The notes under the pieces were generated by a model that did not search any database, had not been told where the DNA came from, and saw only the letters and a list, made by a program, of their open reading frames with translations. This document shows positions 5,958 through 36,174 of a DNA stretch of 36,174 bases, piece by piece. The translations under genes were made by a program, and so were the position numbers. The stretch comes from an uncultured Ardenticatenales bacterium (GTDB lineage: Bacteria > Chloroflexota > Anaerolineae > Ardenticatenales > JAADHH01). The stretch spans positions 1 through 36,174 of the forward strand of contig CAZFFM010000001.1 in NCBI GenBank assembly GCA_964517425.1, read 5' to 3'. The stretch's first letter is position 1. The number at the start of each line of letters is the position of its first letter.

Positions 5958-5978
5958 TACCCTTCACCTCCTGCATCC

Positions 5979-10642: not shown

Positions 10643-10788
10643 TCTGCTGACCAGAACATCTGCCCAAACCCTCCAAAATACCTATCGCAACCTGGCGGAG
10701 TTTGCCGACCGGCCCAAATAGCCACAACAGCACACGATTCTTTCGCGATATCTCCTGGTTACAGAGTATCTCTCTGCTCCATTTCGTG

Positions 10789-15718: not shown

Positions 15719-15800
15719 TTTTGCATTCATCGGTTGCTCTACAGGCTTGCCAGCTCGAACGCCCGACCATTAGCCCGCAAGCGGCGATTTCAATTGCTCA

Positions 15801-17568: not shown

Positions 17569-17858
17569 TTCGACCGATCTTCCTGTCGTTGCTGATACAC
17601 ATACTCGATGAAGTCATCAACTGACTCACTTTCGGGCCAAAAATCTACCCGTAAGCTCGCAATGTCCGTGAGTGGTTCGATTTGCTGCGTTTGCACGAAC
17701 TGTTCGAGCGTTCGCGGTTGCCAAAAATCTCCCTCTGGCCCTACAGCAGGATGATAGCTGCGATACAAAGAGTGAGAGATAACCCGTATAAGATTCAACT
17801 GTTCCAGTGGCGATAGTTCTTGCGTTGCTTCAATCATGGTTTGTAGTTTTGTGGTCAT
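17565..17858 (-). CDS. Antitoxin partner of VapC (family not recognised)
   Basis: 97 aa, translationally coupled to vapC, with GGGAGGA RBS and its own promoter and operator upstream. Confidence 0.65.
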   Translation of the reverse strand: MTTKLQTMIEATQELSPLEQLNLIRVISHSLYRSYHPAVGPEGDFWQPRTLEQFVQTQQIEPLTDIASLRVDFWPESESVDDFIEYVYQQRQEDRSN

Positions 17859-18170: not shown

Positions 18171-18254
18171 CACGCACCACGCACCACGCTCCACGCCCTA
18201 CGCCCCACGCCCTACGCCCCACGCCCTACGCCCCACGCCCTACGCCCCACGCCC
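18171..18254. repeat. Heptad array, 12 in-register units (CACGCCC/TACGCCC alternation)
   Basis: cacgcac x2, cacgctc, then (cacgccc tacgccc)x4.5. The array supplies the last 8 codons and the TAG stop of purB. Confidence 0.85.
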
Positions 18255-19617: not shown

Positions 19618-19626
19618 GGGCCTCCG

Positions 19627-19780
19627 GATTTTGGAATTTAGATTTTGGATTTTGGATTTCCGTGATATGTTTGCGCGTTGAAACGTTCCAACGTTTCACG
19701 TCCTCATGCTCCCCGCTCACCGCTCTACGCCCTCCGCTCCACGCTCCACGCTCTCCGCTCCACGCTCGGCGCTCTACGCG
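19627..19780. repeat. Heptad array, 22 in-register units filling the purQ-purB spacer
   Basis: gattttg gaattta gattttg gattttg gatttcc ... cacgtcc tcatgct ccccgct caccgct ctacgcc ctccgct ccacgct x2 ... A further 5 units at 19812-19846 lie inside the purQ 3-prime end. Confidence 0.85.
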
Positions 19781-20582: not shown

Positions 20583-21101
20583 ATGACAATGGAGACTCTA
20601 AAGGTTTCTGAAAGACCCTTAGGGCCTGGACAAAGGAGTTTTGACATGGCTAGAGCAATTATTGATAAACCTTTCCCTCTGACCCCACGCATCAGTGCCG
20701 ATAAAGCGTGTGCAGAGGCCACAAGTTTTCTGTTGGACCACGTAGGCACACAGCTCGTGGCGGCACAACCTTACCTGATGGTTTCGGCAGTGCGGGCTAC
20801 ATGGATTGTTCCTGTGCAACTGGCCTACATCCACAGCGGCTCGTTGGGTGGCGTTGGTGTCGTGGCCGTGGACGAAGAAACAGGACACGTCATTGCCTGG
20901 ACACCGATCGAGCAAATGAAGTCAGCCAGCCGGAAGCTACGGAACGCTCACGAACCAGAGCTTTCTGAACGGTTCCAAGCATTCATGGCCACACACAGCC
21001 GAGAGTCAAGCGAGTCTGCCGACTTTGCAAACGCGCTTGTCTCAAATGAATACGATGACTACTTAATTCAATTGGCCATGACGAACACTGACGAGACGTA
21101 A
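20583..21101 (+). CDS. Hypothetical protein
   Basis: 172-aa ORF with no motif I recognise. It is AT-richer than its flanks and is the first gene of a plus-strand trio inserted between purQ and purSL. Confidence 0.5.
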   Translation: MTMETLKVSERPLGPGQRSFDMARAIIDKPFPLTPRISADKACAEATSFLLDHVGTQLVAAQPYLMVSAVRATWIVPVQLAYIHSGSLGGVGVVAVDEETGHVIAWTPIEQMKSASRKLRNAHEPELSERFQAFMATHSRESSESADFANALVSNEYDDYLIQLAMTNTDET

Positions 21102-21117: not shown

Positions 21118-21576
21118 ATGAAACGAACCACATCGGGCGAGACCGATTTCGCGAGCTACCGCAAGGCCTGGCGACAGCGTTGGCGTCATGCCGAAGAACG
21201 CCGTCGAGAAAAGGCTTCCCGCGCACGCGCAGCAGCCGAATCTTGTGCACGTTTCCTTATCAAGACCTATCACGTTCACCGTGTCTACCTCTTTGGTTCA
21301 TTGGCCGGCTGGAGTCCCCTGCACGACCGGTCTGACATTGACTTGGCCGTGGAAGGACTGCCTCCCGGCCATGCTTACATTCAAGCCCTCACCCAACTAT
21401 GGCCACTCCTCCCACCTGGCATAGACCTGGACCTGGTTCCGATCGAAGACGCTCACCCCGACTTGGCGGAACGAATTCAAAGAGAAGGGATTTTGCTTTA
21501 TGATGGCACGACATTTTACCCCGCTATGCGCGGATATAGACCGCGAACTGAGCAACCTGAAACAATTGACCATTGA
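21118..21576 (+). CDS. Nucleotidyltransferase-domain protein (MNT-type antitoxin)
   Basis: Polymerase-beta-like NTase signature LFGSLAGWSPLHDRSDIDLAV (G-S ... D-x-D). Confidence 0.75.
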   Translation: MKRTTSGETDFASYRKAWRQRWRHAEERRREKASRARAAAESCARFLIKTYHVHRVYLFGSLAGWSPLHDRSDIDLAVEGLPPGHAYIQALTQLWPLLPPGIDLDLVPIEDAHPDLAERIQREGILLYDGTTFYPAMRGYRPRTEQPETIDH

Positions 21577-21976
21577 AGCCGAAGAAACCCTCGACGGAGC
21601 ACGACGGCAAGTCACTTTCCTGGAGCTGCGGGCTGCGGGTAGTATACTGCATGACTTCTACAGCGGTATCGAAAAGATATTTCGACGCATTGCCCTCGAA
21701 GTGGACGGGAGTTTGCCCGCAGGACCCGATTGGCACCTCCAACTGCTTCTTCGGATGGCCTCCCCCCTCCAAGAAGCACGCCCGGCAGTCATCAACGAAG
21801 ACCTGAAAAACCGGTTGGGCGAATACCTTCGTTTCCGACATCTCATACGCAACATTTACGGGTTTGAACTGCAATGGGATCGTTGCCATGACTTGCTGTA
21901 TGACCTCTTCGATCTGTTCGCCGACCTTTCCGCACAACTACAACGCTTTCAACAGTTCTTGCTCTCCCTCGAATGA
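21500..21976 (+). CDS. HEPN-like partner of the MNT protein (putative toxin)
   Basis: 158 aa and helical. The motif is YLRFRHLIRNIYGFEL, as I remember it from HEPN partners of MNT genes. It overlaps the MNT gene by 77 nt (an alternative TTG start lies at 21566). Its 3-prime end overlaps the convergent purSL 3-prime end by 39 nt. Confidence 0.55.
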   Translation: MMARHFTPLCADIDRELSNLKQLTIEAEETLDGARRQVTFLELRAAGSILHDFYSGIEKIFRRIALEVDGSLPAGPDWHLQLLLRMASPLQEARPAVINEDLKNRLGEYLRFRHLIRNIYGFELQWDRCHDLLYDLFDLFADLSAQLQRFQQFLLSLE

Positions 21977-24862
21977 CACCATCCCCTCCCCCCCCAGCAC
22001 CTCCCCCACCTGCGCCAACGGACAGCCGGCCAGCGCGGCCTCGAAGTTCGCGGCGTCCTCCGGGCGCACTTCCACCAGGAAGCGTCCGTTCGACTCGCTG
22101 AAGAGGATCGTGTCGGGGCGGGTCACGTCGGCGTCGCGCGGCACGCGGGCGAGGTCGAGCCGCAGGCCCAGCCGGCCGGCACGCGCCATCTCCGCGGCAG
22201 CCACGCCCAGTCCCCCGTCCGAGAGGTCGTGGCAGGCACGCACCAGCCCGTCGCGCATGGCGCGGTGCAGCGCGCGTACGGTCCGCGGCCCGCCCTCGGC
22301 CAACCCCGGCGCGCGTCGCCCAACAAATCCCTTTGCTTTGTAATACAGAGACCCGCCCATCTCATTGCGCGTCTGCCCGATGAGGTAGAGCCGATTTCCC
22401 GCTTCCTTTAGATCCATCGTCACCGCCCTACGCACATCCGGCACAATGCCCACTGCGGAGATGAGCAGTGTGCCCGGAATCGGGCGACGTTTGCCGGTCG
22501 CGTCCGCGTATTCGTTGTTCAGGCTGTCCTTGCCGGAGATGAAGGGCAAGCGGTAGGGCACGGCCCCGTCGTAGCACCCTTGCGCCGCGTGCAACAGCCC
22601 CCCCAGCCGGTCGGGGCGGCTCGGGTCGCCCCAGCAGAAATTGTCGAGGATCGCCACCCTCTCCGGGTCGGCACCGACAGCGACGACGTTGCGCAGCGCC
22701 TCGTCCACCGCCGAGACGGCCATCGCCCAGGGGTCAAGCGTGCCATAGCGCGGGTTGATGCCGCAACCGACGGCCACGCCACGCCAGCCGTTCGCCTCCA
22801 GCGGCTTGATCACCGCCCCGTCCGAGGGGCCGTCGCCGTGTGGCCCGACCAGCGGCTTGACCACCGTGCCCCCCTGTACCTCGTGGTCGTACCGGCGAAC
22901 GATGTCCGCCCGGCTGCGGACCGTGGGATGGGCCAGCAGCGCCTCCACCTCGCTGACCAGATCGTCCGGGCAGGGAAAATCGGGTTCGGGAAAATCGGGC
23001 GGTTCCCACGTGGCCTGCAAGTGACGGCGGGGACAGCCGCCGTGCAAGAACGTCACGCCCAACGCGCCGGCCGTCTTCCCATCGTAGCGCAGCGTCAATC
23101 GCCCGTCGCCGGTGAACTGGCCGATGACCGTGGCCTCCACATCCAGGTCGGCGCAGATCCGGATCACGCGTTCCACGTTCGCTGGCGGCACGGCCAGGAT
23201 CATCCGCTCCTGTGCTTCGGAGAGCCAGATTTCCCAGGGGGCCAGGCCCTGGTACTTGAGCGGCACACGTTCCAGGTGTACCGTTGCGCCGAGCTCGGCG
23301 GCCATTTCGCCGACGGATGAAGAGAGGCCGCCGCCGCCGCAATCGGTGATCGCGCTGTAGAGGCCGGCGTCACGTGCGACGAGGATCGCCTCCAGCATCT
23401 TCTTCTCGGTGATTGGGTCGCCAATCTGCACGGCGCTGCCGGCGATTTCGCCCGTCTCGTGGGTCAGCTCCAGCGAGGAGAAGGTCGCGCCGCGCAGCCC
23501 GTCCCGTCCGGTACGCCCACCGACCAGGACGATTTTGTCGCCGGCGCGCGGGTTCGTGCGGTGCAGGCCCTTCGGCGCAATGCCCAGGCAGCCGCAGTAG
23601 ACCAACGGGTTGCCGATGTAGCCTTCGTCATAGAGGATTGCGCCGTTGACCACCGGCACGCCCAGCTTGTTGCCGTAGTCTTCGATTCCGTGAACGACCC
23701 CGCTTTCGATCCGGCGGGGGTGCAGCACGCCGGCCGGCAAGTCGGCGAAGTCCAGGTCTTGCGGGCCGAAGCAGAGGACGTCGGTGGCGGCGAGGGGGCG
23801 CGCGGAGACCCCGATGATGTCGCGCACCACACCCCCCACGCCGGTGTTCGCGCCGCCGAAGGGTTCGATGGCCGAGGGGTGGTTGTGCGTCTCCACTTTG
23901 AAGGAAAGCTCCAGCTCGTCATCGAAATCGATCATGCCGGCGTTGTCCACGAAGGCGGAACGCACCCAGGGGCGGGCCGCTTGCGCAGTGGCCTGGCGGA
24001 TGTAGTCGAGCAGAGACCAGTCGCGCCCGTCGTCCAACGCGGGCGACCGGCGGGCGATCCGTCCGCGGAACGTCTTGTGCCCGCAGTGTTCGGACCAGGT
24101 CTGGGCCAGGGTTTCCAGTTCCAGGTCGGTGGGGTCGCGGCCCGCGTCGCGGAAGTAGGCCCGGATGGCCTGCATCTCGGCCAAGTCGAGCGAGAGGCGG
24201 CGTTCCGCGCTGATTTGTTCCAGGTCTGCATTCGACGCCTGGCGCAGGGGGACGATCTGCACATACCCCACCTGGCTGAGGTCCGGCGGTGCAAAGCCGG
24301 GTTGGGCCGCTCCTAACGTGTAGGTCTGGATGGCGTCGTTGCAGAGGAGGCGACGGGCAATGCGGTGGACCTGCGCTTCGCTCAGGTCGCCGGCCAGCTC
24401 GTAGCGCAGCCCTGTGCGCACCTGTCGCAGTCCCGTCACGCCGATGACCTGCGTGCCGTGGAGCAGCGCTTCCGCCTGTGCGTCGGTCACTCCGGGGCGG
24501 AGGGTGACTTCTACGGAATGCGTTTCGGTATTTCGATTTTGGATTTTGGATTTTGGATTTTGGATTGCTGTGTTGCCTATTGCGGGTTGTGGATCACGTT
24601 TCACGCTCCACGCTCCACGCTCGACGCTCCACGCTCCACGTGCCACGTGCCACGTCGTCTGCGTGACCGGATCGGCCAGCAGAGCGCGACAGATTGTTTC
24701 AACGTCGCCCTCTGTCAAACCACCGCGAAGGAAATAGAGATCGCAAACAACGACATTCTTTACCCCTGCGATTCCCAAATCGCGAATGGCGCGAGACACG
24801 GCATTTCCACGTGGATCGAACTGACCTTCCGAAAGGCACACATCGACGCGAAACGTTTTCAT
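21938..24862 (-). CDS. purL: Phosphoribosylformylglycinamidine synthase, PurS-PurS-PurL fusion
   Basis: One uninterrupted frame. It contains a PurS-like domain (MKTFRVDVCLSEGQFDPRGNAV...), a heptad-encoded linker, a second PurS-like domain (VEVTLRPGVTDAQAEA...), and then the PurL core (WSEHCGHKTF and two AIR-synthase-like repeats). The start is ATG 24862. Confidence 0.85.
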   Translation of the reverse strand: MKTFRVDVCLSEGQFDPRGNAVSRAIRDLGIAGVKNVVVCDLYFLRGGLTEGDVETICRALLADPVTQTTWHVARGAWSVERGAWSVKRDPQPAIGNTAIQNPKSKIQNRNTETHSVEVTLRPGVTDAQAEALLHGTQVIGVTGLRQVRTGLRYELAGDLSEAQVHRIARRLLCNDAIQTYTLGAAQPGFAPPDLSQVGYVQIVPLRQASNADLEQISAERRLSLDLAEMQAIRAYFRDAGRDPTDLELETLAQTWSEHCGHKTFRGRIARRSPALDDGRDWSLLDYIRQATAQAARPWVRSAFVDNAGMIDFDDELELSFKVETHNHPSAIEPFGGANTGVGGVVRDIIGVSARPLAATDVLCFGPQDLDFADLPAGVLHPRRIESGVVHGIEDYGNKLGVPVVNGAILYDEGYIGNPLVYCGCLGIAPKGLHRTNPRAGDKIVLVGGRTGRDGLRGATFSSLELTHETGEIAGSAVQIGDPITEKKMLEAILVARDAGLYSAITDCGGGGLSSSVGEMAAELGATVHLERVPLKYQGLAPWEIWLSEAQERMILAVPPANVERVIRICADLDVEATVIGQFTGDGRLTLRYDGKTAGALGVTFLHGGCPRRHLQATWEPPDFPEPDFPCPDDLVSEVEALLAHPTVRSRADIVRRYDHEVQGGTVVKPLVGPHGDGPSDGAVIKPLEANGWRGVAVGCGINPRYGTLDPWAMAVSAVDEALRNVVAVGADPERVAILDNFCWGDPSRPDRLGGLLHAAQGCYDGAVPYRLPFISGKDSLNNEYADATGKRRPIPGTLLISAVGIVPDVRRAVTMDLKEAGNRLYLIGQTRNEMGGSLYYKAKGFVGRRAPGLAEGGPRTVRALHRAMRDGLVRACHDLSDGGLGVAAAEMARAGRLGLRLDLARVPRDADVTRPDTILFSESNGRFLVEVRPEDAANFEAALAGCPLAQVGEVLGGEGMVSFEGEQELLKAL
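24535..24653. repeat. Composite heptad array, 17 in-register units (119 nt), inside the purSL ORF
   Basis: (gattttg)x4 gattgct gtgttgc ctattgc gggttgt ggatcac gtttcac (gctccac)x2 gctcgac (gctccac)x2 (gtgccac)x2. Confidence 0.85.
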
Positions 24863-25131
24863 GCGGCTGCCCCTGCAACGAAATTGGCACGTTGCAGATT
24901 GCTTTGCTTCACGCGTAACGACAAACCACAAAAGCGCAAAGGCACGAAGGAAAAAACTTTTTTGATACTTTGTAGCTTGGTGACTTTGTGGTGAGAAATC
25001 CCGTTTGGGTTCGGTTTGGGTAGGGGGAACATGACCGCGCGGGAAGACAACCGCTTCCTGGCAACAGTTGACAGATGGCGATGGTTCCAGAGGGACAGGT
25101 TTCCTCCGGAACCATAATTTGGCAAGATCAT
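24859..25131 (-). CDS. Possible 90-aa upstream ORF translationally coupled to purSL
   Basis: The ATG at 25131 has AGGAGG 7 nt upstream, and the stop forms an ATGA overlap with the purSL start. The product is basic, low-complexity and unrecognisable, and the ORF runs across repeat copy B. Confidence 0.25.
   Translation of the reverse strand: MILPNYGSGGNLSLWNHRHLSTVARKRLSSRAVMFPLPKPNPNGISHHKVTKLQSIKKVFSFVPLRFCGLSLRVKQSNLQRANFVAGAAA
24918..24999. repeat. MITE-like element, copy B (degenerate left arm)
   Basis: The core gcaaaggcacgaaggaaaaaac (24936-24957) and the right arm gactttgtggtgagaaat (24982-24999) match copy A at 1121-1202. Confidence 0.5.
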
Positions 25132-27503: not shown

Positions 27504-27629
27504 GATTTTGGATTTTAGATTTGCGATTTTGGATTGGTGGGAAACGTGGTACGTATTGCGTGATGCGTGTTGCGTCTGACGCATCACGCATCACGTTTTA
27601 CCTGACACGTGACACTTGACACCTGACAC
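27504..27629. repeat. Composite heptad array, 18 in-register units (126 nt)
   Basis: gattttg gatttta gatttgc gattttg gattggt gggaaac gtggtac gtattgc gtgatgc gtgttgc gtctgac gcatcac x2 gttttac ctgacac gtgacac ttgacac ctgacac. Confidence 0.9.
27559..27600 (+). terminator. Intrinsic terminator of lepB, built from inverted heptads
   Basis: An 18-bp stem pairs cgtgatgcgtgttgcgtc with gacgcatcacgcatcacg, with one mismatch. It is followed by TTTT and lies 68 nt after the lepB stop. Confidence 0.6.
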
Positions 27630-27656
27630 CTTATTTCCATAACAGCAGCGGGAGCC

Positions 27657-28394
27657 GTGATGGACGAAGCAAGTATCCGTGCCCTTGTCCGGCGTGTACT
27701 GGATGAAATGGGAGACTCAAAGCCCACCGGGCCAATGAATGATGGCAGAGGGGAACCGCTTGTTTCTGCTCCCCTCGCGCTGGTCACCCAAGCGGACGTG
27801 GAAGCGTTGCCGCCGGGCGGGCAACTGCTCATCGCCGCGAAGGCCATCATCACGCCGCTGGCCCGAGACGTGGCCAAAGAGCGGCGCGTGACTCTCGTTC
27901 GTACGGCGGCGCCGGCGCAACCGGAAGACCGCGCGCCGGAGCGGCCCGCCCGCGTCGCCATCGGCGCGGACCACGGCGGGTATGCGCTGAAGGAAATCTT
28001 GCGCCGTTACTTGCAAGACCAAGGCTACGACGTGCGCGATTGCGGCACGCACGGCACGCAGTCGGTGGACTACCCTGACATCGCTTTTCAGGTCGCTCGC
28101 CTGGTCGCCGAAGGGGCGGTGGACCGGGGCATCATGATCGATGGCGCGGGAATCGGCTCCTGCATGGCAGCGAACAAAGTGCCCGGCGTGCGGGCCAGCC
28201 TCTGCTACGACGTTTCCAGCGCGCGGAACGCCCGCGAACACAACGACGCCAACGTCCTCACCCTGGGGGGCAAGCTGATCGGCGAAGCATTGGCCAAGCA
28301 AATCATCAAGACCTGGCTGGAGATGCCCTTCGCCGGCGGTCGCCATGCCGGTCGCGTGGAAAAGATCATGGCTGTGGAGAAACAATGGCAGTAG
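27657..28394 (+). CDS. rpiB: RpiB/LacAB-family sugar-phosphate isomerase with an approximately 100-aa N-terminal extension (BMC-targeted)
   Basis: RpiB core ([14 protein letters not shown] ... [10 protein letters not shown] ... HNDANVL). The N-terminal amphipathic helix [15 protein letters not shown] resembles a BMC encapsulation peptide. Confidence 0.85.
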
Positions 28395-29257
28395 ACATCG
28401 AGCAACTGGTCGCCCTGATCACCAAAGAGGTCATGGTCAAGCTGCGCACGCAGGAGGCGGAAGAGCGCGGCGACCTGCCGGTCTTCCGCTGCTACGACTG
28501 CAGCCAGGGGCGGTGTGCCTGGACCTGCACCGACAAGGTGCGCCGGGTGATGGATGCCGGCGCGACACGCATCGCTGCATCGCTCGGTGCCGGCGGCGTG
28601 GCCACCGACATTGCCCGCATCATTGATCACACGCTGCTCAAGGCGGACGCCACGCCAGCGCAGATCGCCCAGCTTTGCTACGAGGCACAGAAGTACGGGT
28701 TCGCGTCCGTCTGCATCAACCCCGGCTACGCTGCGCTGGCCGCGCAGTTGCTGGCCGGTTCGCCGGTGAAGGTCTGCACCGTTGTGGGGTTTCCGCTGGG
28801 TGCCACCAGCACGGAGGCCAAAGTGGCCGAGACGGTGCAGGCGCTGGACGACGGGGCCACGGAGATTGACATGGTGATCAACATCGGTGCGCTGAAGGCG
28901 GGCGACTACGAGCTGGTGGAGCGAGACATCGCCGCCATCGTGCGTGCGGCACACGGGCGGGGCGCACTCGTCAAGGTGATCATCGAGGCAGCGCTGTTGA
29001 CCGACGAAGAGAAGGTGAAGGCGTGTACGCTGGCCAAAGCGGCGGGGGCCGACTACGTGAAAACCTCGACCGGTTTTGGGCCGGGCGGCGCGACGACACA
29101 CGACGTGGCCCTCATGCGCCAGACGGTGGGCGCGGGTATGGGTGTCAAGGCGGCCGGCGGGATCGGCACCCTAGAGAAGGCGCGCGAGATGGTCCATGCC
29201 GGCGCCACACGCATCGGGGCCAGCGCCGGTGTGCGCATCGTGGCACAGGGGACGTAG
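28385..29257 (+). CDS. deoC: Deoxyribose-phosphate aldolase with N-terminal encapsulation-peptide-like helix
   Basis: DERA core ([36 protein letters not shown] Schiff-base Lys region, VKAAGGI). The N-terminus is [17 protein letters not shown]. Confidence 0.9.
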
Positions 29258-29299
29258 GGCGGGAAGCATGGATCGCCAAGATGAGAACAGGAGTGTCCA

Positions 29300-29578
29300 G
29301 TGCGTGCAGTCCCTCCGTATCTCTTGACGGATCATGCACGAATGGAGATGGCTCGCCGCCAGATCAAAGAGTCAGATATTGCTAGAATCTTGGCCTTACC
29401 TGAGCAAACTGAAAGGGTACGTGAGGGGCGCATGGTCTACCAATCTCGGATAAAGTGTGGAAATCCTCCTAAACTACACCTGCTCAGGGTATTTGTGGAT
29501 GTCGACAGGGATCCCCCGGAGGTCGTAACGGCATACCGGACCAGCAAGGTTAAAAAGTACTGGAGAACTGAACAGTGA
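29300..29578 (+). CDS. DUF4258-like toxin
   Basis: 92 aa with the motif LTDHARMEMARRQIKESDI. The GTG start has AGGAG 6 nt upstream, and there is a GTGA overlap with the next gene. Confidence 0.65.
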   Translation: MRAVPPYLLTDHARMEMARRQIKESDIARILALPEQTERVREGRMVYQSRIKCGNPPKLHLLRVFVDVDRDPPEVVTAYRTSKVKKYWRTEQ

Positions 29579-29781
29579 GAGTCATTTACGACCCCGCGAC
29601 AGATACGTTGACGGTCATCCTGGCTGAAACGCAAGTCGCTGAAAGCGACGAGGATAAACCCGGCGTGATCCTAGACTACGATGCGGGAGGAAGTCTTGTA
29701 TCTCTCGAGATTCTTGACGCCTCTCACCGTGTGGCAGTACCAACCGGCATAGAGTATCAGGTCATGCAAAGAGTCGCATAG
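29575..29781 (+). CDS. DUF2283-like antitoxin
   Basis: 68 aa. YDPATDTLTVIL ... GVILDYDAGGSLVSLEILDAS is the typical DUF2283 pattern. Confidence 0.65.
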   Translation: MRVIYDPATDTLTVILAETQVAESDEDKPGVILDYDAGGSLVSLEILDASHRVAVPTGIEYQVMQRVA

Positions 29782-29805
29782 GGAATGTAGTCGCACACGC
29801 ACGCG

Positions 29806-29874
29806 ATGGTACACGCCGGTGCCACGCGCATCGGGGCCAGCGCCGGTGTGCGCATCGTGGCGCAGGGGGCGTAG
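29806..29874 (+). pseudogene. Duplicated deoC 3-prime end, copy 2
   Basis: Encodes [22 protein letters not shown]-stop. It shows 63 of 69 nt identity to 29189-29257, and 5 of the 6 differences are synonymous. Confidence 0.85.
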
Positions 29875-29892
29875 CGCGAAGGGAGAAGGTGG

Positions 29893-30123
29893 ATGACCAG
29901 TACAGCGATCACACAACAACTTAACGAACAAATTGTACAACTTCCGCTTGGGCTTCAACAAAGGGTTCTTGATTTTGCACAAGCGCTGGTGATTTCTTCT
30001 CCCAAAGGAATCCCGGGAAAGCAACTGCTTCGCTTTGCAGGCACCATGGACCATGATGATATTCGGGCAATCGAACAAGCCATCGAAGCCGGGTGCGAGA
30101 AAGTAGACGTGAATGAATGGTAG
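29893..30123 (+). CDS. Antitoxin partner of VapC (family not recognised)
   Basis: 76 aa, with GGAGAAGG RBS and an 11-nt overlap with the PIN gene. Confidence 0.6.
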   Translation: MTSTAITQQLNEQIVQLPLGLQQRVLDFAQALVISSPKGIPGKQLLRFAGTMDHDDIRAIEQAIEAGCEKVDVNEW

Positions 30124-30502
30124 ATTCCTCTTGGATACAAATGTAATCATTGCGCTTTTTGCGGGAGAGGCCGGCCTTCGGAACCAATTGGAGCAGGCAA
30201 AGGAAGTCTTTGTGCCCACGATTGCACTAGGAGAACTCTACTTCGGAGCTGGAAAGTCCGGACGAGCAAAAGAGAATCTGGGACGGCTGGATGAATTTGC
30301 AGTTAGCGCTTCTGTCCTTGCCTGTGACTTGGGCACGGCGAGAGAGTACGGCGTCATTAAGAACTCATTACGAGAGAAGGGCAGGCCCATCCCCGAGAAT
30401 GACATTTGGATCGCGGCCATTGCCAGGCAGTACGGGTTGACTCTGGTCACCCGAGATGCGCATTTTGACGGAATCAGTGAACTGGCAATGGAGGCCTGGT
30501 AG
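30113..30502 (+). CDS. vapC: PIN-domain toxin, VapC family
   Basis: 129 aa with FLLDTNVIIAL, ENDIWIAA and LVTRDAHF. Confidence 0.85.
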   Translation: MNGRFLLDTNVIIALFAGEAGLRNQLEQAKEVFVPTIALGELYFGAGKSGRAKENLGRLDEFAVSASVLACDLGTAREYGVIKNSLREKGRPIPENDIWIAAIARQYGLTLVTRDAHFDGISELAMEAW

Positions 30503-30543
30503 TCCACGCCGGTTCCACGCGCATCGGGGCGCAGGGGGCGTAG
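30502..30543 (+). pseudogene. Duplicated deoC 3-prime end, copy 3 (with in-frame 24-nt deletion)
   Basis: Encodes VHAGSTRIGAQGA-stop and starts at the last base of the vapC stop codon. Confidence 0.8.
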
Positions 30544-30548
30544 GGCGA

Positions 30549-30604
30549 ATGTCAATTGTCAACGATCAACTTTCAATGGCTAACGTAACACGTAACACGC
30601 AACA
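30549..30604. repeat. Heptad array, 8 units, inverted relative to 11944-12062
   Basis: atgtcaa ttgtcaa cgatcaa ctttcaa tggctaa cgtaaca cgtaaca cgcaaca. The array runs directly into the eutN RBS (GAGGAG). Confidence 0.8.
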
Positions 30605-30615
30605 CGAGGAGCCCC

Positions 30616-30906
30616 ATGCTCATTTGTCGTGTCGTAGGATCGGCGGTTTCGACCGTCAAAGATGAAAAGTTGAAAGGGCTGAAGCTGCTCATTGTCCGTG
30701 AGGTGACGGTGCGCAACCGGCTGGTGGGCAAGCCGCTGGTCGCCGTCGACTCGGTCGGCGCGGGCGAGGGGGAGCTGGTCTTCGTCGCCCAGGGCAGTTC
30801 CGCCCGTCAGACCCACCTGACGCAGAGCGCGCCGGTAGACGCCACGATCATGGCCATCGCCGACTCGTTGGAGGTGGGAGGGAAAGTGACGTATCGTAAG
30901 GCGTAG
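30616..30906 (+). CDS. eutN: BMC vertex (pentamer) protein, EutN/CcmL/PduN family
   Basis: 96 aa with the BMC-P signature MLICRVVGSAVSTVKDEKLKGLKLLIV ... [13 protein letters not shown]. Confidence 0.9.
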   Translation: MLICRVVGSAVSTVKDEKLKGLKLLIVREVTVRNRLVGKPLVAVDSVGAGEGELVFVAQGSSARQTHLTQSAPVDATIMAIADSLEVGGKVTYRKA

Positions 30907-30917
30907 AGGACTGTGAT

Positions 30918-31787
30918 ATGAGTTTCAAAAAGTACACCTCAGGCCAACATACGATCTACCATGGCGATGCTTTGAACGTCCTGCCAACCTTGCAGGACGA
31001 AAGCGTTGACCTGATTTTTGCTGATCCACCATACAACATAGGAAAGCAATTTGCGAGCTTTACTGATAGGTGGTCATCAAATGAAGCTTATGTTGAATGG
31101 TGTAGAAAATGGATCGACCTTTGTGTTCAGAAATTGAACACGACTGGGACAATGTACATAATGGCAAGCACGCAAGGTATGCCCTATATTGACATGCACC
31201 TTCGTGACAAAGTCACAATTCTTTCGCGAATAGTTTGGCACTACGACAGTTCTGGTGTTCAGGCAAGAAGATGTTTTGGTTCCCTGTACGAGCCTATTCT
31301 GCATTGTGTGAAAGACCCTAAAGAGTACACTTTTAATGCCGACCAGATTTTAGTTGAAGCCAGAACAGGCGCAAAAAGGGAACTCGTTGACTATCGAAAA
31401 GTCCCCCCAGTGCTTTATAATACCAAGAAGGTACCTGGTAACGTTTGGTACTTCCCCCGCGTACGCTACCGAATGCCGGAGTATGAGAAGCACCCTTCAC
31501 AGAAACCTGAAGCATTGCTTGAGCGAATCATCGCTGCCAGCAGCAATCCAGGCGATCTAGTCCTGGATCCGTTTGCAGGAACGTTTACAACTTGTGCCGT
31601 CGCAAAGCGTATGGGAAGAACATCAATTGGAATAGAAATCCAGGAGGAATTCATCAAAATCGGTTTGCGAAGGGTTGGCGTGGCCACAACTTACAATGGG
31701 GAAAAACTTAAACCCCCTCAGAAGAACTTCATCCACCGCGCAAAGAAGTCCACACCCCATTCGGTACAACTAGAGCTTGGGGTCTAA
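30918..31787 (+). CDS. Beta-class N6-adenine or N4-cytosine DNA methyltransferase
   Basis: Motif IV FADPPYN precedes motif I LDPFAGTFTT (the beta-class order). The gene is AT-rich and starts 11 nt after the eutN stop. Confidence 0.85.
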   Translation: MSFKKYTSGQHTIYHGDALNVLPTLQDESVDLIFADPPYNIGKQFASFTDRWSSNEAYVEWCRKWIDLCVQKLNTTGTMYIMASTQGMPYIDMHLRDKVTILSRIVWHYDSSGVQARRCFGSLYEPILHCVKDPKEYTFNADQILVEARTGAKRELVDYRKVPPVLYNTKKVPGNVWYFPRVRYRMPEYEKHPSQKPEALLERIIAASSNPGDLVLDPFAGTFTTCAVAKRMGRTSIGIEIQEEFIKIGLRRVGVATTYNGEKLKPPQKNFIHRAKKSTPHSVQLELGV

Positions 31788-32907
31788 GTTTGTGAAAGAG
31801 CATAGCTTTACGCCTGTAATCAGGCAGATACTGTCCGAGGAATTCGGCCCTGCGTATGAAGAAATCTTCAAACAGAGTGAATTGTTGCAGTATCTCAATG
31901 TAAAGACGATCTCAGCCTCTCGTGGGTCAAAGGCCCGTGGTTCATTCGGAAACATCTATGCAATCTACGTGCTGGTCGAGGATTATGTGAGGCGTGGTTT
32001 TCACATTCGTGGGGATTATGAAGATGCCGAGGGAGCACAGTTTTCCGCTCTCTTCAAACGTCAGAGGGGTTTGCCCTTTGGGAGCAGACTCCAAAACCAT
32101 GCTCTCAACCATCGTCTTAATCAGGAATTCAGAAAGTGCTTTCCAATAGCCAATATTCAACCAATACTGCGCGATGCCGAGACTCGCCAGTATTGGATAA
32201 ACGAACACTTGTTAGCGGTCGAGGTACATGAACGAGAGTACAACCTTGCAGAGGCTGTAATCAGAATAATCGATGCTTACGCCGACGCTAAGCAAGAAGC
32301 TTTCAATTCGTTCATTCGCGATTGCGTGAAAATGCAGCACATATCGGACGAAAGCCCTGAAGCAGTGGTAGACTTCATCGCCAATCTGCTGAGGCCCAAA
32401 GTTGATGCACGGATTTTTGAGATTGTGAGCTTCGCAATTTTGAAGGCACATTACGGAGACAAGTCGTTCTTTTGGGGATGGGATATAGACAGCATAGAAG
32501 AAGAAAAGCTCGCTCTATACAAAACGGGGCGTACCAACGCGAACGATGGAGGAATTGACTTTGTGATGCGCCCCCTAGGACGATTCTTCCAAGTGACTGA
32601 AACGCTTGATGTGAGGAAGTATTTCTTGGATATTGACAAAGTACAGAAGTATCCAATCACATTTGTAGTGAAAACAGAAATGGGGATGCCTGAGATAAAG
32701 CAAACCATTGAGAAGCAGGCCGAAGAGCAGTACCCTGTACGTGCTATCGTCAGGCGGTATATGGAATGTATAGAGGAAACCATAAATATACCGACATTGC
32801 TAGAACGGCTGCAAGAAGTTGTGGAGGCAGGAGACCTAAATACAGTCATAAAAGAAATCGTAACGCATAGCAAGGTAGAGTTCAATATGATTGACCAAAA
32901 GACGTAA
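31777..32907 (+). CDS. Putative type II restriction endonuclease
   Basis: 376 aa, AT-rich, and overlapping the methyltransferase gene (TTG 31777, or GTG 31792). The DGGIDFVMRP...QVTETLDVRK segment resembles Mrr-cat/PD-(D/E)xK. The call rests mainly on context. Confidence 0.6.
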   Translation: MGSKFVKEHSFTPVIRQILSEEFGPAYEEIFKQSELLQYLNVKTISASRGSKARGSFGNIYAIYVLVEDYVRRGFHIRGDYEDAEGAQFSALFKRQRGLPFGSRLQNHALNHRLNQEFRKCFPIANIQPILRDAETRQYWINEHLLAVEVHEREYNLAEAVIRIIDAYADAKQEAFNSFIRDCVKMQHISDESPEAVVDFIANLLRPKVDARIFEIVSFAILKAHYGDKSFFWGWDIDSIEEEKLALYKTGRTNANDGGIDFVMRPLGRFFQVTETLDVRKYFLDIDKVQKYPITFVVKTEMGMPEIKQTIEKQAEEQYPVRAIVRRYMECIEETINIPTLLERLQEVVEAGDLNTVIKEIVTHSKVEFNMIDQKT

Positions 32908-33228
32908 CACGCAGGCGGAGGAGGAACTCGTGCCTGTTCAGATGGTAATTGAATTGAGAGAAAAACAGGGAATCCAACCAATTCTTCAATCTATCGAATC
33001 GTACAAAGTGCAACTCACGGCCAGTATCGAGCGCGGCAAACGTCACCTTCGTCAATTTGAGCAACAATACGGCGTGGGTACAAGCTCACTTCTTGCAAGC
33101 GATGACGGCCGAAGACCTGGAAGGTGGTGACCTGGAATACGTAGAATGGGCGGGGGAAGCCAAACTGCTGGAAGCACTGAAAGCTGGGTTGTTGGAACTA
33201 GAGTATGCCAAGTATCACCTTCCCTGAA
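32891..33228 (+). pseudogene. Frameshifted small antitoxin-like gene
   Basis: Frame 1 gives ...RHLRQFEQQYGVGTS and then nonsense. Another frame continues [47 protein letters not shown]-stop. The shift lies near 33077-33085. Confidence 0.5.
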
Positions 33229-33263
33229 TACGCTCAACGGATTGAGCACATTTTGAATCATGT

Positions 33264-33417
33264 GGTCGGCGCGGGCGAGGGGGAGCTGGTCGCCGTCGCT
33301 CAAGGTAGTTCCGCCCGCCAGACCCACCTGACGCAGAGTGCGCCGGTAGACGCCACGATCATGGCCATTGCCGACTCGCTGAAGGTGGGAGGGACCGTGA
33401 CGTATCGTAAGGCGTAA
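33264..33417 (+). pseudogene. Duplicated eutN 3-prime end (51 codons)
   Basis: 141 of 154 nt are identical to 30753-30906 with no indels. It encodes [50 protein letters not shown]-stop. The ORF-track entry 33205..33417 is a chimeric read-in. Confidence 0.85.
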
Positions 33418-33420
33418 TGC

Positions 33421-33765
33421 TTGGGGGAGATGATCGTGATTACTCTTGAGAGGGCAAAAGAAATGATCTCTTCGATGACCCGTGCCGAAAAGGCTCAGGT
33501 TCTACAGTGGGTAGCCCGCGACTTTGGGGAAGCGTTTCCAGGCATCGAGAGCTCACCGCAAGTATCTGGCGGCGAGGCTCACATCGTGCGCACCCGCATT
33601 CCGGTTTGGGTGTTGGTGCAAGCCATGAAGTTGGGAGCAAGCGAAGCAGACTTGCTTAGAATGTACCCAACATTACGTGCAGAGGACTTGGTCAACGCAT
33701 GGGCCTATTATCGCTCGCATCGGGACGAGATTGAGCGACAAATCGTTGAGAATGAAGCGGCGTGA
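33421..33765 (+). CDS. DUF433 antitoxin-like protein
   Basis: The motif is AHIVRTRIPVWVLVQAMKLGASEADLLRMYPTLRAEDLVNAWAYY. The start is ambiguous (TTG 33421, ATG 33430 or GTG 33436). Confidence 0.75.
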   Translation: MGEMIVITLERAKEMISSMTRAEKAQVLQWVARDFGEAFPGIESSPQVSGGEAHIVRTRIPVWVLVQAMKLGASEADLLRMYPTLRAEDLVNAWAYYRSHRDEIERQIVENEAA

Positions 33766-33768
33766 GAC

Positions 33769-34137
33769 ATGGCCCGACTGTTTGCAGACGAGAATTCCCC
33801 CTTGCCTGTTGTCGAAGAACTGCGCCGGCTCGGACACGATGTGCTCACAGTACAGGAAGTCGGCATGGCCAATCAAATGGTTCCAGATAAATCGGTATTA
33901 GACTTTGGGACTGCTGACAATCGAATCGTGTTAACACTCAACCGCAAGCACTTCGTCCACTTGCACAGAAGGTCGTCGGAGCATGAAGGTATTATCGTGT
34001 GCACAGTCGATCTCGACTTCGCCGGTCAGGCCTTGCGCATTCATGAAGCTGTTGGATCGCAGGAGTCGTTGCCTGGAGAACTGATCCGGGTGAACCGGCC
34101 TCGTCAAGGTGGCGAAGTAATTCCGAAGAGGTCGTGA
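33769..34137 (+). CDS. DUF5615 (PIN-like, Mut7-C-related) toxin-like protein
   Basis: The N-terminus RLFADENSPLPVVEELRRLGHDV is typical of DUF5615 partners of DUF433. Confidence 0.7.
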   Translation: MARLFADENSPLPVVEELRRLGHDVLTVQEVGMANQMVPDKSVLDFGTADNRIVLTLNRKHFVHLHRRSSEHEGIIVCTVDLDFAGQALRIHEAVGSQESLPGELIRVNRPRQGGEVIPKRS

Positions 34138-34139
34138 TT

Positions 34140-35627
34140 ATGTCCGCAACGTATGACAAGGACTTGCAGTCCATCCAGGAAGCGCGGCAGCTGGCCGTGG
34201 CTTGCCGCAACGCGCAACGCGAATTCGCCCACTTCTCGCAGGAAGAGGTGGACCGCGTGGTGGCCGCCATGGCCGACGCCGGCTACCGCGCCGCCGAGCG
34301 GCTGGGAGTCATGGCCCACGACGAGACCGGCTACGGCGTGCCCAGCCATAAGAAGCTGAAGAACGAATTCGCCAGCCGCACGGTGTGGGAATCGATCCGC
34401 GACGTGAAGACCGCCGGCGTGATCCGCCGCGACGACGCGCGCGGCATCGTCGAGATCGGCTGGCCGGTGGGCGTCATCGTCGGCCTGACGCCGAGCACGA
34501 ACCCGACATCCACGATCCTGTACAAATCGCTGATCGCCCTCAAAGCGCGCAACGGCATCGTCTTTGCGCCGCACCCTTCGGCCGTGAAGTGCTCGCTGGA
34601 GACGACACGCATCATGGCCGAAGCCGCCCAACACGCCGGCGCACCGGCCGGGCTGCTCGCCTGCATGTCGAAAATCTCCCTGCCCGGTACGCACGAGCTG
34701 ATGGGCCACTGGGCAGTGAACCTGATCCTGGCCACCGGCGGCGCGGCGATGGTGAAGGCCGCGCACAGCGCCGGCAAGCCGGCCTATGGCGTGGGACCGG
34801 GCAACGTCCCGGTCTACGTGGACCGCAGCGCGGATGTGCCCCAGGCCGCCTTCGACATCGTCAACAGCAAATCGTTCGATTGCAGCGTCATCTGCTCGTC
34901 GGAGCAGGCGGTGGTGGCCGACCGCCCCATCGCCGCCCAACTGCGGCGGGAAATGGAGCGCAACGGCGCATACTTCGTGGACCAGGCCCGCGCCGACGCC
35001 CTGGGCCGGCGACTCTTCCGGCCGGACGGCACGAACTGGCCCGAAGTCGTCGGCAAGACACCGCAGCAGTTGGCCGAGATGAGCGGCATTCAGGTGCCGG
35101 GCGACGCGCGCGCCCTGGTCGCCGACCTGAACGCGGTCGGGCCGGAACACCCGCTGTCACGCGAGAAGCTGACCACCGTCCTCGGCTTCTACGAAGAGGA
35201 GGGCTGGATCAAGGGGTGCGAGCGATGCATCGAGCTGCTCAAGTTCGGCGGCGACGGGCACACGCTGGCCATCCACGCGCAGGACGAAGAGGTGATCATG
35301 GCCTTTGGGTTGGAGAAGCCGGCCTTCCGCATCGTGGTCAACACGGCAGCCACCGCCGGCGCCATCGGCCTGACCACCGACCTTGATCCGGCCATGACCC
35401 TGGCCACGGGAGGCATGGGCGGCGGCATCAGCAGCGACAACATAACGGTACGCCACCTGCTGAACACCAAGCGGCTGGCCTACGGCCGGCGTCCCTGGCC
35501 GCTGAAAGCCGAAGCAAAGCGGAGACCGCAAGCGACGAGACCGGCACCAACGGCAACCGGCGGCTATTCCGAGGCCGAGGTCGAGGCCATCGTCCGCCGC
35601 GTGGTGCGGGAGTTAAGAGGGGGATAG
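34140..35627 (+). CDS. Acylating (CoA-dependent) aldehyde dehydrogenase, EutE/PduP-like, with C-terminal encapsulation-peptide-like helix
   Basis: The catalytic region SFDCSVICSSEQAVV can be compared with FDNGxICASEQ. The C-terminus has a Pro/Ala-rich linker and then SEAEVEAIVRRVVRELRGG-stop. The start is ATG 34140 (or GTG 34134). Confidence 0.85.
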   Translation: MSATYDKDLQSIQEARQLAVACRNAQREFAHFSQEEVDRVVAAMADAGYRAAERLGVMAHDETGYGVPSHKKLKNEFASRTVWESIRDVKTAGVIRRDDARGIVEIGWPVGVIVGLTPSTNPTSTILYKSLIALKARNGIVFAPHPSAVKCSLETTRIMAEAAQHAGAPAGLLACMSKISLPGTHELMGHWAVNLILATGGAAMVKAAHSAGKPAYGVGPGNVPVYVDRSADVPQAAFDIVNSKSFDCSVICSSEQAVVADRPIAAQLRREMERNGAYFVDQARADALGRRLFRPDGTNWPEVVGKTPQQLAEMSGIQVPGDARALVADLNAVGPEHPLSREKLTTVLGFYEEEGWIKGCERCIELLKFGGDGHTLAIHAQDEEVIMAFGLEKPAFRIVVNTAATAGAIGLTTDLDPAMTLATGGMGGGISSDNITVRHLLNTKRLAYGRRPWPLKAEAKRRPQATRPAPTATGGYSEAEVEAIVRRVVRELRGG

Positions 35628-35912
35628 TTGGCAGGCAATACTATTGTGATCGTGTGGACCGAGTACTTGAGATACAGGGCCAAACTGCGCAAATTCGACC
35701 TTGCCAAAGTGGAGGAAGTTGTGCGGCACTCAACTGAACGGTATCTCGACACGGCAACAGGCCGTTTCGTCGTCGTGGATCGACATGAAAACATGCTGGT
35801 GATGATCCCGTATGAGACAGATGTAGATTCCATGATACCGATAACTATCCATGCAACGACAAGGCAGCAGATTAGATTCCGGCTTAAAACAGGGAGGCTC
35901 ACCTATGTATGA
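35628..35912 (+). CDS. Putative toxin partner of a DUF2283 protein (family uncertain)
   Basis: 94 aa. The TTG start comes directly after the aldehyde dehydrogenase stop, with GAGGGGG upstream. There is an 8-nt overlap with the next gene. Confidence 0.5.
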   Translation: MAGNTIVIVWTEYLRYRAKLRKFDLAKVEEVVRHSTERYLDTATGRFVVVDRHENMLVMIPYETDVDSMIPITIHATTRQQIRFRLKTGRLTYV

Positions 35913-36132
35913 CAAAAACAAAACCCATTTGGTATACTTTGAAAAAGAGGACGTGTTACACCTGGCAATCTCTGACGAGCCTGAGGCCAAGAGCGTTGAA
36001 CTCAGTCCGAACGTGACGGCGGAACTGAACAAGAAAGGGGAATTGATCGGCGTTGAGATCCTCAATGCCAGTACTTTCATGCGGGATTCCATTCTCGATT
36101 CGGTACAAGCAAAGATGTTACAACTGGCTTGA
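35905..36132 (+). CDS. DUF2283-like antitoxin
   Basis: The start at ATG 35905 has GGGAGG upstream. The pattern is EKEDVLHLAISDEPEAKSVELSPNVTAELNKKGELIGVEILNAS. Confidence 0.6.
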   Translation: MYDKNKTHLVYFEKEDVLHLAISDEPEAKSVELSPNVTAELNKKGELIGVEILNASTFMRDSILDSVQAKMLQLA

Positions 36133-36174
36133 AAGTAGTAGCTTCACGACGAATAATACGAAAGGAGCTTCATA

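Follow-up and report, generated by a model that had tools for sequence, protein, structure and literature searches.

Duplicated gene ends bracket stacked cassettes in a microcompartment operon of uncultured Chloroflexota

Introduction

Restriction-modification (R-M) systems can occur as "insertions with long target duplication" (Nobusato et al., 2000; Furuta, Abe & Kobayashi, 2010), in which direct repeats that are longer than 30 bp and variable in length flank an insert without mobility genes (PMC2853133). A related genome then has an empty site with a single copy of the repeat, the repeats may overlap the 3' end of a neighbouring gene, and the published copies are mostly 93-100% identical (PMC2853133). 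A repeat-based life cycle consisting of insertion, amplification and release has been proposed, although no release or re-infection has ever been demonstrated (PMC2853133). The mechanism of long target duplication has been missing since 2000, and the movement of R-M and toxin-antitoxin (TA) cassettes that have neither transposase nor integrase is a long-standing loose end. Here, we analyse a stretch of 36,174 nucleotides (nt), termed the window, which is contig CAZFFM010000001.1 of assembly GCA_964517425.1 from an uncultured Ardenticatenales bacterium. In its bacterial microcompartment (BMC) operon, duplicated 3' ends of the genes deoC and eutN bracket a series of low-GC cassettes. The host lineages belong to the Chloroflexota and are Anaerolineae-like; the source organisms are uncultured lineages represented by metagenome-assembled genomes (MAGs), and all the evidence is comparative. 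Unlike the R-M class, the locus carries mostly type II TA systems, shows serial insertions at one gene end, which are visible as nested relics, and is set in a microcompartment operon of Chloroflexota.

In homology-facilitated illegitimate recombination (HFIR) one end of the incoming DNA is anchored by homology and the other end joins at a GC-rich microhomology of a few bp, whereby recipient DNA is typically replaced or deleted. HFIR is said to have been described in natural transformation by de Vries and Wackernagel and by Prudhomme and colleagues, both in 2002, in experiments with Acinetobacter and pneumococcus. The integrative and conjugative elements (ICEs) ICESt1/3 and the cis-mobilisable elements (CIMEs) at fda reportedly insert into a gene at its 3' end, which is restored in the process, and need a tyrosine or serine recombinase and a fixed att core for this. 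Oliveira, Touchon and Rocha are said to have reported in 2017 on hotspots between core genes, in which the turnover of accessory and defence genes was attributed to flanking homologous recombination.

A previous reading of the window, made from its letters and termed the sequence-only reading, had proposed that the junction between deoC and eutN was used repeatedly to stack TA cassettes, each of which arrived together with a donor deoC end. Our comparison with related loci suggests, with a probability that we put at roughly 0.6, that the repeats are scars of a recombinase-free gain of cassettes by recombination between lineages, in which a homologous exchange on one side would have been combined with an illegitimate joint at the opposite end. 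A full-text literature search of limited coverage, directed at target duplication and HFIR, returned no earlier report of TA cassettes with gene-end duplication.

Results

Two gene ends are duplicated around cassettes

The functional 3' end of deoC (copy 1) is followed by two further copies of the same sequence (Table 1). Copies 1 and 2 share 81 nt that are 89% identical according to the repeat finder, and the few nt that follow the stop codon are part of the repeated unit. Within the coding part copy 2 differs from copy 1 at six of 69 nt, five of the changes being synonymous and in third codon position, while the remaining one, in first position, replaces Thr by Ala. Copy 3 has lost 24 nt from its interior, which leaves 42-48 nt, and its first base is the G of the vapC stop codon TAG. 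The sequence-only reading had described the three copies, the six differences and the in-frame deletion that begins at the vapC stop, and all of this is confirmed here, the repeat extending slightly further (81 nt) than it had reported. A blastn search yields E = 2e-21 for copy 2, which places the repeat beyond chance. As a negative control we used a DNA-pattern scan of metagenomes, which returned 27 distant deoC genes (~70% identity), each with a single deoC end.

The deletion in copy 3 lies between two internal GCGCATCG repeats that are 24 nt apart. A different deletion, of 27 nt, is found in the deoC-end relic of the related locus L085, where it lies between GCCGG repeats 27 nt apart. Since both are located between internal direct repeats, they are explained as products of slippage, and they are in frame only because the coding sequence is periodic. 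Selection on the encoded peptide as the cause of in-frame relic deletions was therefore rejected: with internal repeats spaced by 24 and 27 nt, slippage suffices.

A second duplication, which is absent from the sequence-only reading, concerns the 3' end of eutN, of which 153 nt (30753-30905) recur with 92% identity at 33264-33416. Relic and functional end differ at 4, 3 and 8 sites in first, second and third codon position, respectively. The two eutN copies bracket a DNA methyltransferase gene, its 376-aa partner and a decayed TA pair.

The window is a metagenome-assembled contig and several of the alleles discussed below share one sample (L081 and L117 both stem from JGI 3300005096), which raises the question of whether co-existing single-cassette strains were threaded through a shared deoC end during assembly. 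Such an artefact is most improbable. Three pipelines (NCBI MAG, JGI and Logan) agree across the stack, the JGI contig L119 being 100% identical to the window over 28660-36174 and the Logan contig L120 over 30053-34397. Moreover, the longest identical run between copies 1 and 2 is 35 nt, which is below read length, and the architecture is repeated in unrelated samples (L081, L085, L118 and L121-L123). The window, L119 and L120 probably all stem from a single sample.

The cassettes between deoC and eutN

The cassette between copies 1 and 2, termed TA1, consists of two small genes of the DUF4258 and DUF2283 families, which overlap by 4 nt. In the GC profile it reaches ~0.52, compared to ~0.66 for the host genes. 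The pair is a predicted TA system, an assignment that follows annotation practice. The cassette between copies 2 and 3, termed TA2, combines a PIN-domain toxin gene (vapC) with a small upstream gene of 76 codons that overlaps it by 11 nt, which is the arrangement by which VapBC systems are recognised. The matches of its toxin to the NCBIfam VapC models are below the cut-off (79.8 compared to 140 bits). The 76-aa "VapB-like" protein matches no Pfam or NCBIfam family and is an antitoxin by position only. Pfam thus confirms the DUF4258, DUF2283 and PIN/VapC genes that the sequence-only reading had placed between successive copies. No promoter-like or terminator-like sites were found at cassette borders between 29258 and 30615, and co-transcription of the cassettes with the operon is therefore likely.

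Relatives carry empty, occupied and decayed junctions

The nearest GTDB species representative has a DeoC that is only 66% identical, and the GTDB scan was therefore uninformative on alleles. The exact DeoC sequence of the window has no database record. A protein homolog search, together with the members of the clusters, yielded a tight clade of relatives with 92-97% DeoC identity, whose contigs were read as loci L081-L085 and L113-L123. Four of them (L114, L115, L116 and L118) have an empty site, in which the deoC stop codon TAG is followed by a 64-nt spacer, homologous to 30544-30615 of the window, and by eutN. In L081 the deoC end is followed by TA1, a full-length second deoC end and the spacer. 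L085 and L121-L123 show the deoC end, VapBC, a relic and, last, a DUF2283 gene that has diverged and of which the 3' part is present, and they have the joint TAG/TCCACGC at the end of vapC in common with the window (here and below, a slash marks the joint). Thus, relatives have both the empty sites and the single cassettes (L081; L085, L113, L121-L123) that the sequence-only reading had hoped to find.

Other alleles are decayed. In L084 and L113 VapBC is decaying: deoC is fused in frame to vapB, giving an ORF of 312 aa, and vapB is fused to the middle of vapC. At the sequence level (L084 3765-4105, L113 4563-5501) one deletion took the deoC stop and the vapB start and a second one joined vapB to mid-vapC. 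L117 (1752-2496) has a chimeric ORF, VapB-like at its N-terminus and PemI-like at its C-terminus, upstream of an intact PemK. L083 has a decayed PemIK within the spacer, ~30 nt of which are duplicated on both sides, and at 5870-6157 of this locus a PemI-like gene is fused to the last PemK codons. The chimeras of L117 and L083 are products of deletions between adjoining cassettes. In L082 a diverged TA1 without relic is truncated by heptad repeats within its DUF2283 gene, and heptad arrays may therefore expand into, or replace, decaying cassettes.

The interval between eutN and the aldehyde dehydrogenase gene varies as well. It is empty in L082, carries an intact TumA-like pair in L081 and holds a heavily deleted remnant of the window's R-M pair in L085. 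In L118 an MNT gene lies between two copies of a 104-nt stretch of the eutN end, and L113 provides the matching empty site. Taken together, the succession of gene end, cassette and relic recurs independently at 4-5 places, namely at TA1 and VapBC of the window (deoC relics), at the Tum-like pair of the window (153-nt eutN relic), at the MNT gene of L118 and at PemIK of L083. The duplications measure ~30, 69-81, 104 and 153 nt and affect three targets: the deoC end, the eutN end and the spacer. This allelic series indicates that the deoC-eutN junction is a genuine cassette site that has been used repeatedly, and its empty, TA1-only, VapBC-only, PemIK and decayed alleles support the stacking site of the sequence-only reading.

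Origin and age of the copies and cassettes

Each of the six variants that distinguish copy 2 from copy 1 is also found among the functional deoC alleles of relatives, and private changes are absent from copy 2. For at least five of six random changes to be synonymous, the probability is P = 0.0076. In the other relics private substitutions are few: two in copy 2 of L081, one in copy 3 of the window and one in copy 3 of L085. These results favour the view, taken in the sequence-only reading, that the copies diverged as functional deoC ends of different lineages.

A comparison of the window with L081 shows that different parts of the operon have different histories. The identity is 81% for the signal peptidase gene, 83% for rpiB, 93% for deoC, 94% for eutN and 98.1% for TA1, and the two repeats that flank TA1 are 94% and 91% identical. 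The value for deoC is that of a mosaic, with one mismatch in the first 256 nt (28385-28640) and ~10% divergence in the remaining 610 nt (28643-29252), which indicates that homologous exchange between these lineages is frequent. Since TA1 is more similar than the host genes (98.1% compared to 83-94%), it must have been exchanged recently, in an exchange that ended in or at the repeats. VapBC (85% compared to L085) and the R-M remnant (90%) have diverged about as much as the host genes. By these comparisons TA1, which is the proximal cassette, is the youngest one; the remnants of PemIK and old TA1, at the distal end, are the oldest and most decayed.

All deoC-eutN alleles fit a single linear order of TA1-new, VapBC, TA1-old and PemIK. 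An ancestral stack in which these cassettes stood between deoC and eutN, and which later suffered deletions only, would thus explain the alleles without repeated arrivals. Precise loss between direct repeats is easy and regenerates the empty site, and the divergence of VapBC and the R-M pair tracks that of their hosts. We nevertheless judge a purely ancestral stack to be quite unlikely: the high identity of TA1 relative to its flanking host genes points to a recent exchange, the relics differ by allele-like polymorphisms, and the origin of the duplications would still need a mechanism.

Joints and an ancestry switch

The left borders of the cassettes lie 0-8 nt past the host stop codon and read TAG GGCG/GGAAGC for TA1, TAG CGCGAA/GGGAG for VapBC and TAG/AGGACTG for the methyltransferase. 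The right borders vary: TA1 keeps a 24-nt tail, vapC and the MNT gene end 0-1 nt before the relic and the ORF of the Tum-like partner is truncated. Two of the right joints show microhomology. The L118 MNT joint reads ..GGACTGAC/TCAGAACG and the corresponding part of eutN ..CACCTGAC/CCAGAACG, with CTGAC in common; the joint of the partner ORF in the window reads ..ATGTGGTC/GGCGCGGG compared to ..ACTCGGTC/GGCGCGGG in eutN, with GGTC in common. Only 2-7 nt of imperfect similarity are found at the vapC/deoC and TA1/deoC joints.

At L118 one side of the cassette has changed ancestry. Starting exactly at the joint, ~360 nt are >99% identical to L113 (3 mismatches). This patch runs through the relic and the remnant behind it into the aldehyde dehydrogenase gene, of which it includes the first 150 nt, and ends at ~4960. 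Beyond it the two loci are ~10% diverged, eutN upstream of the joint is ~7.5% diverged, and the functional eutN end of L118 differs from its own relic at 10 of 93 sites. The patch, which is read at one junction only, has the shape that would be expected for an exchange with one homologous and one illegitimate side. Together with the microhomologies of 4-5 nt it makes a recombinase-free route with an illegitimate joint plausible; HFIR specifically, for which the sequence-only reading had argued, is unproven. The same reading had taken the downstream copies to be relics of the recipient throughout, and this too is unproven, as the L118 patch is as donor-like as it is recipient-like.

These observations bear on the possibility that the repeats arose in place, by some unknown break-and-fill or sister-chromosome mechanism that duplicates 30-150 bp of the resident sequence, after which the copies diverge or are overwritten. 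Topology and repeat lengths fit the long target duplication class (>30 bp, variable, no mobility genes, aligning empty site; PMC2853133). Among the functional eutN ends compared, the one nearest to the eutN relic of the window is that of the window itself, with differences at 15 of 156 sites, compared to 23-37 for other alleles. Moreover, at position 42 of the deoC repeat the two copies of the window have T and those of L081 have C, which fits an in-situ duplication or gene conversion better than chimeras of donor and recipient and thus weighs against the reading that we prefer. It also violates the prediction of reciprocal chimeras made by a Campbell-type integration of a circle, in which one copy per genome should have the donor base at every site. 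Duplication in place is unlikely all the same, as it has to contend with a divergence of 8.7% between copies 1 and 2 that is synonymous at five of six sites and free of private changes in the relic. Moreover, the L118 relic and its flank resemble another lineage more closely than they do their own functional end, and TA1 (98%) is far younger than the repeats on its two sides (91-94%) when the window is compared with L081. The inter-lineage synonymous polymorphisms that separate the flanking copies point to recombination between alleles.

Search for mobility machinery and comparison with described systems

No integrase or transposase domain of Pfam was found among the window ORFs scanned, six host-GC ORFs (119-2504, 3941-7602, 8435-9925) being outside the scan, and none is present in the precomputed Pfam annotations of the called genes at the related loci read. 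Likewise, no inverted repeats that bracket cassettes were detected in a repeat search of the window, and within this scope the absence of recombinases, transposases and inverted repeats claimed by the sequence-only reading is upheld. A core motif shared across the junctions was looked for and not found. The window has neither tRNA genes nor Rfam families. Three candidates were rejected: att sites linked to tRNA genes, as the window has none; a structured RNA or attC-like hairpin in the repeats, which fold no better than shuffled sequence (z ~0) and are blank in Rfam; and a plasmid or phage vector for the cassettes, as phages gave no match and plasmids nothing closer than a 64.5% match of VapC, on a plasmid of cyanobacterial origin.

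A site-specific recombinase supplied in trans could use the deoC and eutN ends as att sites, at which integrase-less, cis-mobilisable modules would accrete in tandem as in CIMEs and ICEs. Tandem modules bounded by gene 3' ends are generally regarded as typical of att-site accretion, and different lineages show identical cassette-relic joints. This explanation appears very unlikely, however, in view of the search results above and of the diversity of the junctions, which comprise three targets, at least four repeat lengths and differing left ends without a common core motif or inverted repeat. In addition, vapC and the MNT gene end 0-1 nt from the relic, which leaves no room for an att arm borne by the element, one joint truncates a cassette gene, and joints show microhomology.

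With CIME and ICE accretion the locus shares direct repeats of gene 3' ends, restoration of the gene and tandem modules, but neither a recombinase nor a fixed att core is seen in the window ORFs scanned and the annotations of the loci, and targets, lengths and left ends vary. With integron arrays it shares compact, co-oriented, promoter-less and TA-rich cassettes that are stacked at one site, enter proximally and would be expressed from an upstream promoter. IntI, attI and attC-like hairpins, in contrast, were not found here, the repeats are host coding sequence and the positions of the joints vary. Since the defining features of both were tested for and not found in the sequences covered, the locus is neither an integron array nor a product of att-site accretion. 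The hotspots attributed to Oliveira and colleagues lie between core genes, whereas the junction studied here is internal to an operon and ~64 nt long, and the array itself contains copies of the flanking homology in the form of gene-end relics.

Of the phenomena described so far, R-M long target duplication comes closest to the locus. The likeness extends to repeats of more than 30 bp (81 nt for deoC copies 1 and 2, 153 nt for eutN and 104 nt for L118), to empty sites in relatives (L114, L115, L116 and L118 for deoC and L113 for the MNT gene of L118), to inserts that at 0.33-2.4 kb are smaller than 20 kb and without mobility genes among the ORFs scanned, and to an insert GC content unlike that of the host. 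In contrast to that class, the inserts at the deoC end are TA pairs rather than genes for restriction and modification, and the R-M pair that is present sits in the larger eutN bracket, whose joint involves a TA remnant. In addition, the flanking copies are 89-92% identical, which is lower than most published cases, and differ by inter-lineage polymorphisms. HFIR, for its part, resembles the locus in the gain of foreign DNA without enzymes of mobile elements, in microhomology at a joint (CTGAC of L118 MNT/eutN and GGTC of the window partner/eutN) and, at the one L118 junction, in a homologous other end with an ancestry switch in a conserved gene; it differs in that the products here carry a gene-end duplication. 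The locus may thus be said to work like HFIR, by way of an analogy, since membership cannot be claimed from sequence.

The operon and the rest of the contig

The operon encodes RpiB, DeoC, EutN and an aldehyde dehydrogenase, and in relatives also BMC-H, BMC-T and further EutN proteins; we take it to resemble the sugar-phosphate-utilising type of microcompartment operon. Its host genes have a GC content of 0.63-0.69, and every junction between them holds a cassette of low GC (0.45-0.55). This contrast identifies the cassettes as foreign DNA sited inside the operon. RpiB (27657-28394) has an N-terminal extension of ~95 aa that matches Pfam PDU_like (2e-7), and DeoC has one of ~70 aa (28385-28600); both are plausibly microcompartment-targeting regions.

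Table 1. Features of the window from deoC to the end of the contig.
Feature	Position	Strand	Evidence and remarks
deoC (deoxyribose-phosphate aldolase with N-terminal extension; host microcompartment gene)	28385..29257	+	Pfam DeoC 1e-16; 82-93% nt identity to relatives
Copy 1, functional deoC 3' end	29181..29261 (coding 29189-29257)	+	Repeat search and self-blast; includes 4 nt past the stop
TA1: leader, DUF4258 (29300-29578), DUF2283 (29575-29781), 24-nt tail	29262..29805	+	Pfam DUF4258 1.3e-8, DUF2283 4e-16
Copy 2, full-length deoC-end relic (69 coding nt)	29798..29878 (coding 29806-29874)	+	Stop plus 4-8 nt beyond
TA2: 76-aa ORF in antitoxin position (29893-30123), PIN-domain VapC (30113-30502)	29879..30502	+	Pfam PIN 1.9e-18; 85.4% compared to L085
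Copy 3, deoC-end relic with 24-nt internal deletion	30502..30549 (30502-30543 in the narrower delimitation)	+	Starts on last base of vapC stop
Native deoC-eutN spacer with heptad array (30583-30606) and eutN ribosome-binding site	30544..30615	+	Homologous to 64-nt spacer of L114/L118; TRF
eutN (BMC-P pentamer protein)	30616..30906	+	Pfam EutN_CcmL 2e-29; last 153 nt (30753-30905) are the upstream repeat copy
R-M cassette: N6/N4 DNA methyltransferase (30918-31787), 376-aa partner (31777-32907)	30918..32907	+	Pfam N6_N4_Mtase 3e-58; GC ~0.45
Decayed TA pair: frameshifted TumA-like antitoxin gene and first ~20 codons of partner	32931..33263	+	95.7% compared to intact L081 pair
eutN 3'-end relic (153 nt plus stop)	33264..33417	+	Pfam EutN on relic ORF 5.9e-11
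DUF433 (33421-33765) / DUF5615 PIN-like (33769-34137) cassette	33421..34137	+	Pfam 1e-17 / 1e-21; abuts aldehyde dehydrogenase start
Aldehyde dehydrogenase, next host operon gene	34134..35627	+	Pfam Aldedh; 82-92% identical to relatives
Cassette directly after aldehyde dehydrogenase stop: 94-aa ORF and DUF2283	35628..36132	+	Pfam DUF2283 7.7e-13; contig ends before a duplication could become visible

Downstream of eutN, the 376-aa partner of the methyltransferase has no family match in Pfam or NCBIfam. The frameshift of the TumA-like gene is visible in the ORF list, its 98-aa counterpart in L081 has a weak TumA match, and its partner ORF is cut off at the joint with the eutN relic. The last base of the NCBI contig (36174) is also that of the JGI contig L119 and lies within the DUF2283 gene of the cassette behind the aldehyde dehydrogenase gene; strain variation at a further cassette junction may have broken both assemblies there.

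Other operon junctions of the relatives also hold cassettes (L081 14192-15839, L113 8120-9022, L118 6432-6844), among them HicAB after the aldehyde dehydrogenase gene and a ~300-aa MNT/HepT-like ORF after BMC-H. Self-comparison revealed no gene-end duplications at these other junctions. Throughout the clade the operon as a whole is thus a sink for cassettes.

The rest of the contig contains genes for purine and NAD biosynthesis that are interspersed with low-GC islands. Islands of TA type comprise a Phd antitoxin (7845-8132), a PIN pair (17164-17858) and a HepT-like pair (21188-21976). Further low-GC ORFs occupy 2553-3990, 9983-11649, 15608-15994 and 20583-21101, and outside the deoC and eutN inserts five low-GC ORFs of the window match no family. 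No gene-end duplications were found at the other low-GC islands of the window (PIN, HepT-like, Phd and others), which shows that not every insertion comes with a duplication. Direct repeats of 45 nt (80% identical, 9787-9831 and 10716-10760) lie beside the adjacent low-GC ORFs 9983-10642 and 10789-11649, neither of which has a Pfam match; if these genes are paralogous, the repeats may represent their duplicated leaders or promoters.

Many intergenic spacers contain tandem arrays of 7-nt units (TTTGGAT, CGTATTG, CACGCCC, GCTCCAC, ACGTAAC and others), and different heptads are often adjacent. Such arrays are located at 11940-11977, 15607-15644, 18171-18255, 19626-19659, 19708-19779, 24531-24566, 24602-24655, 27504-27535 and 27600-27631, in addition to the one in the deoC-eutN spacer. 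An 84-nt repeat (71% identical, 1128-1211 and 24925-25008) with the self-complementary ends ACCACAAAG...CTTTGTGGT could be a small element of the repetitive extragenic palindrome (REP) or miniature inverted-repeat transposable element (MITE) kind, or belong to a terminator family.

Discussion

The main inferences of the sequence-only reading are largely borne out, and the locus is not a new type of system. From the alleles compared here we infer the recombination pathway, the parent of each relic and the means of DNA transfer. In a recombining population of host lineages, a gain of cassettes by recombination between lineages could proceed in two stages. In the first one, incoming DNA of a diverged relative would carry, beside deoC or eutN, a low-GC cassette for addiction or defence. 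On one side it would be exchanged homologously with the resident operon, and on the other side it would be joined illegitimately, guided by microhomology, inside the neighbouring host gene. Survivors would keep one intact copy of the gene, and would thus have the functional end, the cassette, the 3' relic and the older downstream content, in this order.

In the second stage the relic, which is a direct repeat of 70-150 nt of a conserved gene end, would itself serve as a homology arm. The unit of gene end, cassette and relic could then enter the gene end of any relative by a RecA-type double crossover, regardless of what lies downstream, with a left crossover in the body of the gene and a right crossover at which the relic recombines with the resident gene end. 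If so, new cassettes would be placed next to the functional gene and older ones would be pushed away, and the occurrence of the same cassette-relic joints in different combinations would be explained. Recombination from repeat to repeat would remove cassettes precisely and restore empty sites, and relics would decay by point changes and slippage deletions. That the gene-end relic is a working part of a recombinase-free mobile TA or R-M cassette, providing for RecA homing, gene restoration and stacking, is a tentative proposal which we hold to be possible, though on present evidence rather less than probable.

Several points, in addition to the bases at position 42, count against a gain of cassettes by recombination between lineages. 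No transfer or recombination event has been observed directly. HFIR in experiments usually deletes or replaces recipient DNA, and a duplication would need an illegitimate joint upstream of the gene end as well as selection for an intact copy. The right joints of vapC and the MNT gene are located exactly at the stop codon of the cassette, which random illegitimate joining does not predict, and the primary insertion of a cassette a few nt after the host stop is left unexplained. The shared cassette-relic joints could also be due to one ancestral stack and differential repeat-mediated loss, which would give the same joints; the separate arrival of each cassette, as envisaged in the sequence-only reading, is thus not established. 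In addition, since the matching contigs L119 and L120 probably share the sample of the window, the double stack has no independent biological replicate.

The 64-nt junction offers a natural allelic series with empty, single, double, reordered and decayed states. Because the repeats carry synonymous polymorphisms that are diagnostic of lineages, the parentage at each joint can be read and the mechanism can be tested. For annotation, the lesson is that short ORF fragments that copy the tail of a neighbouring gene mark the borders of cassettes. The locus also shows that cassettes can have a hotspot inside an operon without loss of host genes, since the gene end is restored at every insertion. If homing by means of the relic were true, the layered array in this operon could be read as a record of arrivals, and it would provide natural evidence for the "virus-like life cycle" of R-M systems and extend it to TA systems.

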